Source of the DNA: a virus
Lineage: Duplodnaviria > Heunggongvirae > Uroviricota > Caudoviricetes
Length of the DNA: 6,511 nucleotides
IMG/VR virus record: IMGVR_UViG_2698536485_000005
Span: 1-6,511 of that record
Direction: 5' to 3' (one strand)
Under the pieces are notes generated by a model. That model was not told the origin of the DNA. It was given only the letters and a program-made list of their open reading frames with translations, and made no database searches. The translations under genes were made by a program, and so were the position numbers. Positions 1 through 4,606 of the stretch are shown here, in pieces. Each line of letters starts with the position of its first letter. Position 1 is the stretch's first letter.

Positions 1-151
1 AGAGCCGTGTTTATTGAGTCGGTATTCAGAGTCTGACCAGAAATTATTAATCTGGTGAAGTTTTTCCTCTGTCATTACGTCATGGTCGATTTCAATTTCT
101 ATTGATGCTTTCCAGTCGTAATCAATGATGTATTTTTTGATGTTTGACATC
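1..151 (-). CDS. Hypothetical protein, N-terminal 50 codons only (runs off the left edge of the window); start ATG at 151..149
   Basis: Open minus-strand frame from ATG (151) to the window edge: MSNIKKYIIDYDWKASIEIEIDHDVMTEEKLHQINNFWSDSEYRLNKHGS... GAGG about 9 nt upstream of the ATG; in-frame stop immediately upstream fixes the start. Not in the ORF track because it is partial. No family recognised. Confidence 0.45.
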
Positions 152-171
152 TGTTCATATCCTCACAGATA

Positions 172-197
172 AAAAATCGCCCTCACATTGGAGGGCA
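172..197 (-). terminator. Intrinsic (rho-independent) terminator on the minus strand, downstream of the 346..795 gene
   Basis: GC-rich 6-bp stem GCCCTC (180..185) / GAGGGC (192..197) with a 6-nt loop; on the minus strand the stem is followed directly by a run of six T (plus-strand A-run 172..177). Confidence 0.6.
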
Positions 198-258
198 AAG
201 AAGATTTCCAATAATCAGAACAAGTCGGCTCCTGTTTAGTTACGAGCGACATTGCTCC

Positions 259-286
259 GTGTATTCACTCGTTGGAATGAATACAC
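259..286. repeat. Perfect 9-bp inverted repeat GTGTATTCA-N10-TGAATACAC in the 3' untranslated region of the 346..795 gene
   Basis: Arms at 259..267 and 278..286 are exact reverse complements; no adjacent T-run, so it is not an obvious terminator. Could be a protein-binding site or an RNA stem-loop. Confidence 0.4.
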
Positions 287-345
287 AGTGCAGTGTTTAT
301 TCTGTTGTTTATGCCAAAAATAAAGGACGGTTATGCGGCCTGAAA

Positions 346-795
346 TTACTTAACCAATGATGCTGCATATTCGATAAGGTAAAGTTTTGGGGCCAGCCAA
401 ATTTTTAACCAAGTCATATTGGTTACTACACCAATAATAAAAATCCCCCACAGAGTCAAAACTCCAACCAATGGCATGATAAGAAGGTTAATATCTCCTT
501 TGCTATCCCAAACCATTGTCGGCCTGTATTTGGGATTTCCCATCTCCCATGAGTATCCTTCATCACCGATTTTACCTGTCTCAACTCTTTGGCACTGCTT
601 CTTCATAAACCAGAAAACCAGTGGGATTGTTAGAATGGCTATTAATGTTTTAATCAGACTGTCAACCATATTCCATAGCAGCAACTGATGAACAACATCA
701 GGAATCTGTGCCTGGCTAAATGAAACAGCCGCGTCTATTCCATTACTGGCTTTTTGCAGTAGTTCTACGAGAATCTTGTTTGCTTGTTCTTCCAT
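346..795 (-). CDS. Small integral membrane protein (149 aa, two predicted transmembrane helices), function unknown; candidate prophage exclusion/abortive-infection effector
   Basis: ATG start with AAGGTG 4 nt upstream on the minus strand. About 46 soluble N-terminal residues, hydrophobic helix LIKTLIAILTIPLVFWFM, about 38-residue loop, second hydrophobic helix INLLIMPLVGVLTLWGIFIIGVV, short C-terminal tail. A+T-rich relative to the replication genes. No family recognised from memory. Confidence 0.7.
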   Translation of the reverse strand: MEEQANKILVELLQKASNGIDAAVSFSQAQIPDVVHQLLLWNMVDSLIKTLIAILTIPLVFWFMKKQCQRVETGKIGDEGYSWEMGNPKYRPTMVWDSKGDINLLIMPLVGVLTLWGIFIIGVVTNMTWLKIWLAPKLYLIEYAASLVK

Positions 796-873
796 ATATC
801 ACCTTAAATAGTGGATTGCGGTAGTAAAGATTGTGCCTGTCTTTTAACCACATCAGGCTCGGTGGTTCTCGTG

Positions 874-940: not shown

Positions 941-1480
941 ATGAGTAACTGGTGGCAGGAACTATTACGTTTCTTCCTGCGTGGTCTTACGCTACAACAG
1001 TTAATTCATATGCTTATTATTTTAATTGCCTTGATAATAATCACCCCAGCATCAATTAAAGAGTGGGTAGATATAAGGAACCCCGAAATACTTCCAGATC
1101 ACTGGATGTATTACGCAATGCTTTTGTGTATCAGTTATGTTCTGAACAGGGTGATGGAGTTTATATTTCTGGCATCTTCAGACAGATATAAAAAATATCT
1201 CAGTAAGAGAGATGAGGCTAAAGTAATTGTGGAGACTGAGCACCTGTTCAATTCTCTGAGTATTCAGGAAAAAGAGGTTTTAGCATTTGCTGTTATGGCA
1301 AATAACAAAATTGTACTTAAGCACGGCGATCCGGTCGCTTTATCTCTTATGAGAAAAGGCCTTCTCCATCGCTCAGGTGTGACTTACAGCGCGTCAGGTA
1401 AAGAGAAATTTGTTATACCTGACGTCTGGTTCCATGAGTGTTATATGCGCTTTGCTGGTAAAGCTGATGAGCTAATTTAG
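941..1480 (+). CDS. Membrane-anchored protein (179 aa; two N-terminal TM helices plus about 100-aa soluble C-terminal domain); possible SieB-like superinfection exclusion protein
   Basis: ATG with GGAG 8 nt upstream. Hydrophobic segments LIHMLIILIALIIITPA and WMYYAMLLCISYVLNRVMEFIFLA. Lies next to the immunity region and convergent with the predicted pL, the arrangement I recall for sieB in lambda/P22/Rac. Size and topology fit SieB, but sequence homology was not verified. Confidence 0.6.
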   Translation: MSNWWQELLRFFLRGLTLQQLIHMLIILIALIIITPASIKEWVDIRNPEILPDHWMYYAMLLCISYVLNRVMEFIFLASSDRYKKYLSKRDEAKVIVETEHLFNSLSIQEKEVLAFAVMANNKIVLKHGDPVALSLMRKGLLHRSGVTYSASGKEKFVIPDVWFHECYMRFAGKADELI

Positions 1481-1594
1481 TTCCTCGACGGCGGGGGATC
1501 GTCATCTCGCTGTCAGTTGTTTTGATTTCCTGTTGCCTGCCGCGTAAAGAGCTTGTGTCACGAGATCGCTAACCCCGTATATAAAAACACTTCA

Positions 1595-1610
1595 ATAACT
1601 ATCAAGTTAT
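1595..1610. repeat. Perfect inverted repeat ATAACT-atca-AGTTAT in the pL leader region
   Basis: Exact 6-bp arms with a 4-bp spacer; a second perfect inverted repeat with the same half-site in the opposite arrangement (AGTTAT-aaa-ATAACT) lies at 1743..1757 beside OL. Confidence 0.4.
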
Positions 1611-1706
1611 GGAAATGTTCTTTTGTAGTGAGCAGCATTGCCGTTCATCCTGAACCCGCCGCGCTCCCGACGCATGGTTTAATGTCGCGCCGTTCGACAT
1701 GGCTTA

Positions 1707-1735
1707 ACTATATCCAAAGCTATTATTGATGTAAA
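1707..1735 (-). promoter_or_regulatory. pL-like early leftward promoter
   Basis: On the minus strand: -35 TTTACA (plus 1730..1735), 17-bp spacer, -10 TATAGT (plus 1707..1712); predicted start near 1700. Both hexamers overlap operator-like sites. Confidence 0.6.
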
Positions 1736-1874: not shown

Positions 1875-2606
1875 TTAGTAGTCAACTACAGACCACCAGA
1901 AGATTCTTCCGATGATCTCGATATCGCTTAGATTCTTTTCTTCTTGTGGGTATTCCAGTGAGTTAAAGCTTCTAATGCTTACCTTGTCAGGCCCTGATCG
2001 AAAGAGAATCTTAATGCGTTTCCAACCGTTCTCGTTAATGGCGTAAATCTTTCCGTCAACTATTTTCTTATCGTTGGTGTTAACAGCAACTGTTGTTCCA
2101 TCAGGAATGTTTGGCTCCATGCTGTTGCCACGAGCCGGAAAACAAACAACCCCGCTTCCATCACTGTTCGCACCAACTCTGCGAAGGGTTGATTTGGAGA
2201 AGCGCAACATAAAGCCGTTGTGATCTTCATCAATCACCCGACCATCCCCGCATGCAAACTCAATATCTTTAAGGTAAGGAATTTCAACTTCATCACCTCT
2301 TAAAGGCGTTCCTCCATCCCATGGGTCCAAATATCCCCACGTGCTTTCATGAGGAATAGAAGATTTTGGATTATAAGGTTCAACTCCCTCATCACGCATT
2401 GGCCCAGTTCCATCGGAAAGCCATTCCGTACGAACTCCAAGCACTTTTGATATTTCAAAAAGTTTGCGCGTATTGCGTGTTTTTCCAGACGTAAGTTTCC
2501 AGACGCTTGGCTGAGACATGCCAACAGCATTGCCAAGTGAAGCCTGAGTAAACCCAGCCTGATCCATCGCGTATGTAAGCCTTTGAGAAAAAGTATCTAG
2601 TTTCAT
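1875..2606 (-). CDS. cI: CI-type prophage repressor: N-terminal HTH DNA-binding domain plus C-terminal LexA-like S24 autopeptidase domain
   Basis: 243 aa. N-terminal HTH region (...GFTQASLGNAVGMSQPSVWKLTSGK...), C-terminal GNSMEP serine motif (Ser162) and downstream GWKRIK lysine, with a linker F-A-C-G about 42 residues before the Ser. Divergent from cro across an operator region; apparently leaderless start, as for lambda pRM transcripts. Confidence 0.93.
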   Translation of the reverse strand: MKLDTFSQRLTYAMDQAGFTQASLGNAVGMSQPSVWKLTSGKTRNTRKLFEISKVLGVRTEWLSDGTGPMRDEGVEPYNPKSSIPHESTWGYLDPWDGGTPLRGDEVEIPYLKDIEFACGDGRVIDEDHNGFMLRFSKSTLRRVGANSDGSGVVCFPARGNSMEPNIPDGTTVAVNTNDKKIVDGKIYAINENGWKRIKILFRSGPDKVSIRSFNSLEYPQEEKNLSDIEIIGRIFWWSVVDY

Positions 2607-2714: not shown

Positions 2715-2945
2715 ATGGTCAACAAGGCTATTAAAGCGGCTATTGACTCAGTAGGAAGTCAGCAAAAGTTAGCTGATGCCTGCGGTGTTAAGCAGCCGTC
2801 TGTATGGGCTTGGTTGCATGGGAAGAAAAGGGTATCCGCTGAAAATGCCAAGCGCATTGAAATGGCTACCAATGGAAGCGTCCCTGCATACCTGATTCGC
2901 CCTGATTTATCCGCTTTGTTCCCCAATCCGAACAAAGCAGCTTAA
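2715..2945 (+). CDS. cro: Cro-like small HTH repressor (76 aa)
   Basis: ATG at 2715 with AGGAG 8 nt upstream (the ORF-track start at 2673 is a TTG lying inside the operators/promoter). First rightward gene after OR/pR; HTH segment QQKLADACGVKQPSVWAWLHGKK shares the QPSVW motif with the CI recognition region. Not lambda-Cro-like in sequence; the call rests on position and HTH. Confidence 0.8.
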   Translation: MVNKAIKAAIDSVGSQQKLADACGVKQPSVWAWLHGKKRVSAENAKRIEMATNGSVPAYLIRPDLSALFPNPNKAA

Positions 2946-3064
2946 TAAAGCAAATCTTTATACCGAACGGCCCGGTATACGGTCGGGTGCCCGGCGTGGT
3001 CAAGGATGACTGTCAATGGTGCACGATAAAAACCCAAATTATTTATCTATGGAGATAGTAAGAA

Positions 3065-3361
3065 ATGACACAAGCAAGTTACAGCAAGCCAACACAGCGA
3101 GAAATTGATCGCGCTGAAACTGATTTACTCATCAACCTGTCAACGCTTACCCAGCGCGGTCTGGCAAAGATGATTGGCTGTCATGAATCGAAGATAAGCA
3201 GAACGGACTGGAGATTTATTGCTTCGGTCTTGTGTGCTTTCGGAATGGCATCAGATATCAGTCCGATTAGCAGGGCTTTTAAGTATGCGCTTGATGGACT
3301 CACCAATAAAAAACGCCCGGCGGCAACCGAGCGTTCTGAACAAATACAAATGGAATTTTAA
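3065..3361 (+). CDS. cII: CII-family transcriptional activator (98 aa)
   Basis: GGAGA ribosome-binding site 9 nt upstream. The C-terminal about 20 residues (LTNKKRPAATERSEQIQMEF) match the lambda CII C-terminus as I remember it; the N-terminal two-thirds differ from lambda CII. Position directly after cro is canonical. Confidence 0.85.
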   Translation: MTQASYSKPTQREIDRAETDLLINLSTLTQRGLAKMIGCHESKISRTDWRFIASVLCAFGMASDISPISRAFKYALDGLTNKKRPAATERSEQIQMEF

Positions 3362-3658: not shown

Positions 3659-4606
3659 ATGAGCAATACAGCAAAAATCTACGATTTCAGCGCCGCACAC
3701 GAGCGCAGGAGCAACAGGATGGAGAACCAGAAAACTGGTTACATTCCGTTGTACCGGAGCATTCTGAAACAGTCATGGGCGAAAGATGTTTATCTTCGCA
3801 CCCTGTGGGAAAACCTTCTCCTGAATGCCGCCAGAAAGCCATACAAAGCGAATTTCAAAGGTCATGAATGGCATCTGCAACCCGGTCAACTGGTTGTGAC
3901 AGCAGCTGATTTAGGTCTTCAGTTATGCGACAGGCATGGCAAGCCGGCAAGCCGTGATCAGGTTGAGCGGATGCTTCAGGTTTTTGTGAAAGAGGGGATG
4001 ATCTCCATTGATGGAGAGAAGCAAAAAGGTCGTGTGATCACCATCACAAATTACCATGAATACGCTCAAAAAATGGACAATTCACCCGCACATGATGCCG
4101 CACAAACAACCGCACATGATGCCGCACATGATGAAGACAGTAATGGCGCGGCTTTCAGCGTACATGCCGCACATGAAAGCGCACATGAAGCCGCACAAAC
4201 AACCGCACATCATGAACAAGAAGGTATTAACAAGAATATAAATAATACCCCCCTACCCCCCAATGGGGGCGGCGATGGGCAGGTTAAACCTGAACGTCGC
4301 AAGGCAGAACGCATCGACTACGAATCCTTCCTGAACGCCTACAACACCGAAGTCGGTGACAGACTGCCACACGCTGTTGCGGTCAACGAGAAACGCAAAC
4401 GCCGCCTGAAGAAAATCATCCCGCAACTGAAAACGCCAAACGTGGACGGTTTCAGAGCGTATGTCAGGGCGTTTGTGCATCAGGCCAAGCCGTTTTACTT
4501 CGGAGACAACGACACGGGCTGGACGGCCGATTTTGATTACCTGCTGAGAGAAGATTCGTTAACGGGAGTTCGGGAAGGGAAGTTTGCAGACAGGGGGATT
4601 GCATGA
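3659..4606 (+). CDS. O-like replication initiator protein (315 aa) with the internal origin
   Basis: N-terminus [10 protein letters not shown]... resembles the lambda O N-terminus (MTNTAKI...). The middle of the gene carries tandem 12-bp DNA repeats encoding an Ala/His/Asp-rich linker, followed by an AT-rich tract; the stop overlaps the helicase start (ATGA). Confidence 0.88.
4086..4250. repeat. Replication origin: eight 12-bp iteron-like direct repeats in two blocks of four, followed by an A+T-rich unwinding region
   Basis: Block 1 at 4086..4133 (CCGCACATGATG, CCGCACAAACAA, CCGCACATGATG, CCGCACATGATG); block 2 at 4167..4214 (CCGCACATGAAA, GCGCACATGAAG, CCGCACAAACAA, CCGCACATCATG); AT-rich stretch 4215..4250; then a CCCCC...GGGGG element at 4251..4270. 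Same iteron-plus-AT-tract-inside-O layout as ori-lambda. Confidence 0.7.

Follow-up and report, generated by a model that had tools for sequence, protein, structure and literature searches.

The window, by which we mean the whole stretch of 6,511 nucleotides analysed here, is a lambdoid immunity and replication region. A gene for a CI-type repressor (1875–2606, minus strand) is followed by cro (2715–2945, plus strand) and cII (3065–3361, plus strand), and beyond cII lie genes for an O-like initiator and a DnaB-like helicase, and ninB. Within the O-like replication gene, ACATGATGCCGCACA-type repeat units at about 4085–4205 (plus strand) encode a His/Ala-rich repeat and resemble the origin iterons embedded in the lambda O-type gene. 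On the other side of the repressor gene are sieB (941–1480, plus strand), the open reading frame of 149 codons that is the subject of this report (346–795, minus strand, with its ATG at 795) and the start of a DUF2528 gene (1–150, minus strand).

The leftward transcript

The pL promoter (TTTACA, a 17-nt spacer and TATAGT; 1707–1735, minus strand) has hexamers that align with the −35 and −10 elements of the HK022 pL annotated in phage O276. It is followed by an HK022-type putL antiterminator RNA (1628–1699, minus strand) that is nearly identical to the annotated putL of O276 and HK022, and in which a change in stem I is compensatory (GTCG...CGAC compared with GACG...CGTC). The paralogous putR RNA occupies the spacer between cro and cII (2969–3025, plus strand), corresponding with the annotated putR of O276 and the putR site of HK75, and window positions 2957–3064 are 98% identical to HK022 putR. 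Neither putL nor putR matches Rfam at E ≤ 1, and neither has an MFE better than that of shuffled sequences, and the put assignment is therefore based on sequence identity with the HK022 sites that have been characterised. In the early transcription of HK022, pausing and termination are suppressed by put RNA alone (PMC9378689; PMC6256539); the second of these papers also describes phage O276. The homology of putR indicates that the present phage uses RNA-based antitermination. Promoter, putL and putR are nearly identical in the window and in HK022, whose early-left operon runs pL–putL–nun, and the upstream transcription logic is the same. The difference lies in the first gene served by pL, which is nun in HK022 and O276, whereas the window lacks nun and its first intact sense ORF encodes a protein of the PHROG 3054 family.

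On the leftward transcript this gene is preceded by about 830 nt of RNA that is either non-coding or antisense, the order being pL, putL, an AU-rich hairpin, an N remnant, antisense sieB, a 145-nt spacer and the 149-codon gene. The AU-rich hairpin, with 17 bp and a U-run (1578–1622, minus strand), lies directly downstream of putL. Read from 1622 to 1578 it folds with −15.5 kcal/mol (z −3.6, none of 200 shuffles being as stable); it was missed by a GC-based terminator scan and surfaced only as a chance match to mir-7927 in Rfam. We regard it as a candidate intrinsic terminator, through which put-modified RNA polymerase would read.

Next on the transcript is the dead 3′ remnant of an N gene (1502–1553, minus strand), recognised by its match to intact N genes in related loci. 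It comprises 16 codons that end in ALYAAGNRKSKQLTAR and a stop, has no start codon and has in-frame stops upstream, and its C-terminus is that of the full N ORF in one related locus (L011) and of the 'N peptide' annotated by PGAP in E. coli PEC122. Two other readings of this segment were rejected. A boxA/nutL assignment for GCTCTTTA at about 1541–1549 fails because the segment is the 3′ end of the N gene, and the 27-residue 'transcriptional antitermination N peptide' of PEC122 is not a functional small antiterminator, being the same C-terminal remnant; NCBIfam models matched neither the N peptide nor any of the small ORFs here. The window has neither N nor nun. The sequence-only reading had placed the 149-codon gene first among the sense genes of the leftward transcript, and this is borne out in that it is the first intact sense ORF, with N reduced to a 3′ remnant and antitermination effected via HK022-type putL and putR. 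The surroundings form a clean HK022-type put immunity region together with a P22-like left arm, both N and nun having been lost.

The last feature crossed before the gene is sieB, which is divergent from it and is identified by matches to Pfam SieB (PF14163, 2.9e-20) and to phrog_1301 (6e-94). Like the 149-residue protein, SieB is a small membrane protein with N-proximal transmembrane (TM) helices, and in lambdoid left arms the two genes belong to one accessory segment. They lie on opposite strands, however, and their products show no homology; the PF14163 profile matches ORF 941–1480 and does not match the 149-residue protein at E ≤ 0.1. Because sieB is antisense to the pL transcript it needs a rightward promoter of its own, whereas its neighbour needs pL. 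No rightward promoter for sieB reached the threshold of the promoter scan. The pL transcript crosses the whole of sieB in antisense before it arrives at the gene, so that an RNA complementary to sieB over its full length would arise from lytic transcription.

Just upstream of the sieB start is a 16-nt direct repeat, ACCCCTACAG[C/A]GAGAA, with copies at 875–890 and 909–924 (34-nt spacing). Each copy lies within a short inverted repeat, and the repeat co-occurs with sieB in related loci. No significant RNA fold was found at 875–924 on either strand, and the repeat may be a regulatory or promoter element of sieB. RNA structure in the 145-nt spacer between sieB and the 149-codon gene was considered and rejected (z −0.14 and −0.32 relative to shuffles for the two strands).

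No sigma-70-like promoter was found within 300 nt upstream of the gene, even at a relaxed threshold. What lies upstream differs among 80 related IMG/VR loci (N directly, N with ral, N with antisense sieB, or putL), and the upstream sequence is not conserved; in phage HF4s just 8 bp separate the end of N from the start codon of the homolog. Every lambdoid copy reads in the direction of the early-left operon, and no promoter travels with it. The combination of variable upstream neighbours with the lack of a promoter of its own indicates that the gene relies on pL for its expression. It is accordingly predicted to be expressed early in lytic growth and to be repressed in the lysogen.

These observations bear on the leading idea of the sequence-only reading, that the protein is an abortive-infection (Abi) or superinfection-exclusion effector expressed from the prophage for protection of the lysogen. 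The gene is indeed a neighbour of sieB within an accessory region, has terminators after it as a moron would, and belongs to a family common in prophages. The upstream promoter characteristic of a moron is nevertheless missing, and the changing upstream neighbours and the 8-bp spacing in HF4s tell the same way, as do the sense orientation within a CI-repressed pL operon and the presence of homologs in strictly virulent phages. We consider protection of the lysogen very unlikely.

Downstream, directly 3′ of the stop codon, is a hairpin with a T-run (316–341, minus strand) in a spacer shared with Sf6 gene 34. Its copy in PEC122 (AGGCCG...CGGCCT) has a folding energy of −9.7 kcal/mol, compared with −3.3 kcal/mol (z 0.76) for the window copy, which has a stem mismatch; the hairpin, which travels with the gene, is plausibly a weak terminator in the relatives and has decayed in the window. 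An intrinsic terminator of the tL2a type follows at 177–198 (minus strand), ∼147–148 nt past the stop codon. Read from 198 to 177, it has an 8-bp stem with 5 GC and a T-run (−13 kcal/mol, z −2.8), and it marks a module boundary shared among lambdoid phages, being annotated as tL2A in Sf6 and tL2a in O276. The 147-nt spacer and the terminator accompany the gene in ∼70 of the 80 loci. The terminator had earlier been taken as the gene's own, which is not accurate: alignment shows that, with the preceding ∼110 nt, it constitutes the lambdoid tL2a module, which lies 148 nt beyond the stop and is present also in O276, where the gene is absent.

In several related loci (L018, L020, L023, L046, L061 and others) the counterpart of window positions 199–345 holds 0.4–1 kb of extra genes, which lie between the stop codon of the homolog and the final 93 nt ahead of tL2a. 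The spacer, which is annotated in Sf6 as boundary sequence bsq4, thus serves as a site at which additional cargo genes are inserted.

The gene and its family

The ORF is a genuine gene and not a chance reading frame, as is evident from its full-length match to PHROG 3054, from the 516 homologs present in a database of 5.8 billion proteins, and from a pooled dN/dS of 0.27, which denotes purifying selection (Nei-Gojobori; 49 unique alleles from 72 loci). Residues 1–149 align with profile positions 1–137 of 137 (E 2.1e-63), and a Shine-Dalgarno-like sequence, AAGGTG (800–805, minus strand), is located 4 nt 5′ of the ATG.

Hydropathy analysis (Kyte-Doolittle, 19-residue windows) identifies two hydrophobic segments, at residues ∼46–64 (peak 2.0) and 104–126 (peak 2.45), which we assign as TM helix 1 (TM1; 604–660, minus strand) and TM helix 2 (TM2; 418–486, minus strand). 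TM1 is preceded by a soluble, acidic and conserved N-terminal tail of 45 residues (N-tail, codons 1–45; 661–795, minus strand). The two helices are joined by a charged, variable loop of 39 residues (codons 65–103; 487–603, minus strand) of mixed charge, with 5 K/R and 6 D/E. In PHROG 3054 as a whole the loop has between 10 and 63 residues. TM2 leads into a C-terminal tail (C-tail, codons 127–149; 349–417, minus strand) with the pattern WLKIWxAPKLYLIEYAASLxK. An AF2 model, confident at pLDDT 87, has helices at 2–68, 106–125 and 128–148. The N-tail in this model is helical and continuous with TM1, the loop has the lowest pLDDT, and the C-tail forms juxtamembrane helices at 128–134 and 136–148. 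The model was calculated from a 75-sequence alignment and replaces an earlier one from 23 close sequences, which was poor (pLDDT 66) and whose BFVD matches were meaningless. Both the anatomy proposed beforehand from the sequence (149 residues, two TM helices, a soluble N-terminal region and a charged loop) and the ribosome-binding site proposed with it agree with these results. The description of the protein as unrecognised is correct as regards function, but not as regards family, which is catalogued, includes Sf6 gene 34 and has thousands of members.

An exhaustive profile search (E ≤ 1e-3) yields 2,590 clusters at 50% identity for PHROG 3054, almost all of them single-domain proteins of 120–180 residues, and all 75 distant members scanned also match this PHROG. 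Exactly two TM helices are predicted in 118 of 138 distant members, and alignments of the present protein with its family place these helices between an N-tail motif, IPDV..QLL.W, and a C-tail motif, APKLYL.EYA. By tblastn the family is present in 177 records among 50,697 phage genomes. The copies in Stx2_EH2086, vB_SosS_Oslo and HF4s are 89–99% identical to the window protein, and variants of the N7/SPN9CC type, CUS-3 and Salmonella phages of the 103203_sal5 type are ∼50% identical. A nucleotide search also returned HF4s, Gally and Sf6 gene 34. With the variants of ∼50% identity, the nucleotide match is broken into two pieces that cover only part of the query, which suggests recombination or diversification within the gene.

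Beyond the P22-like and lambda-like temperate phages, the family occurs in many Vibrio phages, in N4-like phages of Salmonella and Vibrio, in phi92-like myoviruses, in Pseudomonas and Rheinheimera phages and, with one member, in the Ralstonia jumbo phage RsoM2USA. Copies that can be named include Sf6 gene 34, HF4s_0037, vB_SosS_Oslo gp47 and phi92 gp220, and the only labels given to members are 'hypothetical protein', 'TM helix-containing protein' (HF4s_0037) and 'Phage transmembrane protein'. Sf6 gene 34 and the window gene share full-length homology, the two-TM architecture and a position in the early-left operon upstream of tL2a. The context of the window copy is unusual, in that putL, the N remnant and antisense sieB stand in place of an intact N. 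The window gene is a new copy of a known, catalogued family and represents no new kind of system.

Database comparisons point to no function. The window protein matches no model in Pfam (E ≤ 0.1), NCBIfam or PADLOC. When 75 diverse members were scanned singly against the same three collections, the matches were scattered, each to one or two members, and amount to TM-composition noise. The family profile found nothing among PDB sequences, fold-library searches returned members of the family itself and generic helical hairpins only, and searches of the literature on Sf6 gene 34, phrog_3054 and the early membrane proteins of Schitoviridae and of lambdoid pL operons found no functional study. Sequence, profile and fold searches give no support for an Abi, superinfection-exclusion or kil-like role. 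The gene is an ordinary accessory gene and encodes no recognisable exclusion, killing or lysis factor.

The surroundings of the homologs differ widely. In an N4-like Salmonella phage the homolog is near the genes for phage RNA polymerase subunits, in an N4-like Vibrio phage it adjoins thymidylate synthase, in another Vibrio phage it is beside DUF2800 nuclease genes, and in phi92 it adjoins an ATPase and an endonuclease; in Pseudomonas, Swiduovirus and Rheinheimera phages it lies among unannotated small ORFs. In all of the annotated virulent phages inspected the homolog is outside the lysis and structural modules. One metagenomic contig with uncharacterised small ORFs has a peptidase M15 gene ∼3.5 kb downstream of the homolog. 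An exception is seen in a metagenomic P22-like contig (L094), where a 180-residue member (4001–4543) stands in a small-ORF island within the virion-assembly operon, the order being coat, gp4-like, the island with the homolog, and then tail and ejection-protein genes; this location implies that early expression is not universal in the family. A gene of ∼965 bp that follows the homolog in Sf6, HF4s, PEC122 and the N4-like FSL SP-076 was considered as a conserved partner and rejected, since these genes are not homologous (BLASTP E 39). No recurrent neighbour gene was found in six further neighbourhoods. The family gene behaves as mobile accessory cargo.

Conservation and membrane topology

Conservation along the protein is strikingly uneven, both across the 75 distant members (column identity) and among close alleles, of which 49 are unique (dN/dS). 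The C-tail is the most conserved segment across the family, with a column identity of 0.77 and a dN/dS of 0.13, and the N-tail has corresponding values of 0.61 and 0.08. Values for TM1 are 0.31 and 0.16, for the loop 0.24 and 0.25, and for TM2, the least constrained segment, 0.22 and 1.04. Near-invariant residues are Leu9, Gly19, Phe26, Pro32, Val34, Gln37–Leu39 and Trp41 on the N-terminal side and Ile132, Ala135–Lys137, Leu140, Glu142–Tyr143, Ala145 and Leu147 on the C-terminal side, and most of them adjoin the membrane-proximal ends of the hairpin. The retention of the tails, while the TM helices and the loop vary, points to a membrane-anchored binding module and not to a pore. It appears, on this sequence evidence, that the TM hairpin serves as an anchor and that the N-tail and C-tail together make up the functional module.

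The abrupt change within the C-terminal part of the protein, from a dN/dS of ∼1.0 in TM2 to 0.13 in the adjoining C-tail among close alleles, deserves separate mention. Diversifying selection on a TM–TM interaction, instead of mere relaxation, could account for the TM2 value.

The same pattern of conservation weighs on a further explanation, that the protein is a pore-forming or host-killing toxin of the holin, viroporin or kil-like kind that depolarises or permeabilises the inner membrane. The sequence-only reading had suggested host killing of the kil-like kind; a two-TM hairpin would suit such a role, and overexpression of small membrane proteins is often toxic. The lining of a channel, however, would not be expected to be the least conserved part of the protein, with a dN/dS in TM2 of ∼1; nor is the homolog ever beside an endolysin or a lysis cassette in the annotated contexts inspected. 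No holin family in Pfam or PHROG is matched. Class II holins such as S68 of phage 21 are proteins of ∼65–100 residues with two TM helices, short tails and a charged C-terminus; their genes adjoin that of the endolysin in the late operon, and they depend on the sequence of the TM helices. The window protein shares with them the two TM helices, but it has 149 residues and a 45-residue N-tail, is encoded in an early operon, has poorly constrained TM helices and matches no holin model in Pfam. Lambda Kil, a short soluble peptide of 47 residues that blocks FtsZ, differs from it in length and in lacking the two TM helices, and in relatives of the window locus the same operon has kil genes of its own, annotated farther downstream. 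A pore or toxin is, in our judgement, quite improbable. The sequence-only reading had already set the protein apart from holins, with which its size, position and sequence disagree, and from RexB. The latter distinction is confirmed by hydropathy and the AF2 model: RexB has four TM helices and a rexA partner downstream of cI, whereas the present protein has only two, and the window contains no rexA-like gene, the cI terminator following directly after cI.

The orientation of the hairpin in the membrane can be approached through its charges. The N-tail has a net charge of −3.5 across the 75 distant members, and K/R residues beside the TM helices are commoner on the loop side in 61 of these 75. 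By the positive-inside rule this favours a cytoplasmic loop and periplasmic tails. Such a topology would require the 45-residue N-tail to be translocated with no signal peptide, which counts against the explanation that we find best, given below. The N-terminal extensions of distant members contain neither a signal peptide nor an additional TM helix, all of them being hydrophilic and acidic.

A proposed function

We propose that the protein is anchored in the membrane, is made early in infection and binds a host partner, acting as an accessory takeover factor, and assign to this reading a probability of about 0.38. The two weakly constrained TM helices would form a hairpin anchor in the inner membrane, and the conserved N-tail (1–45) and C-tail (127–149) would be the working part, displayed on one face of the membrane. 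As the product of the first intact gene of the pL operon, the protein would be made early in lytic development, HK022-type put antitermination carrying the transcript past the AU-rich terminator, the N remnant and antisense sieB. The tail module would bind a conserved component of the host inner membrane or envelope, and not a phage-specific partner, and this binding would alter envelope function in favour of the infecting phage. The protein so conceived would be neither a pore-former nor an abortive-infection effector protecting the lysogen. The sequence work establishes that the gene is real, together with its architecture, family, pattern of conservation and place in the operon; the protein's membrane localisation, topology, early timing, binding mode and target are those that we infer.

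The choice of a host target is guided by the distribution of the tail motifs. The same motifs are found in P22-like, lambda-like, N4-like, phi92-like, Vibrio, Pseudomonas, Rheinheimera and Ralstonia jumbo phages, whose virions and DNA-delivery machineries are unrelated, which makes a host target more likely than a phage-specific one. This distribution is also a difficulty for a second kind of exclusion, directed at other phages during lytic growth in the manner of T4 Imm or HK97 gp15, in which entry of a secondary genome would be blocked via ejection or tape-measure proteins. T4 Imm is, as is predicted for the window protein, a small, early inner-membrane protein, and its reported periplasmic N-terminus is a topology also allowed for the window protein, since the positive-inside rule permits conserved tails that face the periplasm. 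Members of the family are likewise encoded in non-late regions, and one homolog adjoins the ejection-protein genes of a P22-like phage. Imm, however, has 83–94 residues, is built on a membrane core of four helices and has the T4 tape-measure protein as its binding partner, and no similarity in sequence, profile or fold relates the window protein to it; neither Pfam nor PHROG links the family to Imm or to other exclusion proteins. PHROG 3054 moreover extends to phages that have no tape-measure protein, unlike the target range of Imm, and tail motifs common to podo-, myo- and siphoviruses fit poorly with a phage-specific target. Exclusion of this kind we judge improbable.

A role in anti-defence must also be weighed, in which the protein would act early to neutralise membrane Abi effectors of prophages or host, such as those of the SieB, RexB or other two-TM types. 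A membrane location would suit contact with such effectors, and the family's presence in virulent as well as temperate phages is in keeping with this role. The homolog also adjoins sieB in 16 of the 80 related loci, the window included, but this is the minority pattern. There is no homology to Esc/SieB, the PADLOC matches of family members are TM-composition noise, and the literature search gave no experimental hint of such an activity. This role, too, seems improbable.

Returning to the host-directed binding protein that we prefer, its extension to the family as a whole is more tentative. PHROG 3054 might constitute a new class of host-takeover or anti-defence proteins in temperate and virulent phages of Proteobacteria, whose invariant tails, possibly periplasmic, would target a universal machine of the envelope or inner membrane or would neutralise Abi effectors of the SieB/RexB type; stated in this general form, we think the proposal rather unlikely.

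Taken alone, the window gene adds a further copy to a catalogued group of hypothetical proteins; what makes it useful is that it draws attention to a family of unusual size and breadth. For that family the residues of interest are those of the tails, not of the TM helices. A protein kept by phages so unlike one another probably has to do with some general feature of the Gram-negative envelope.
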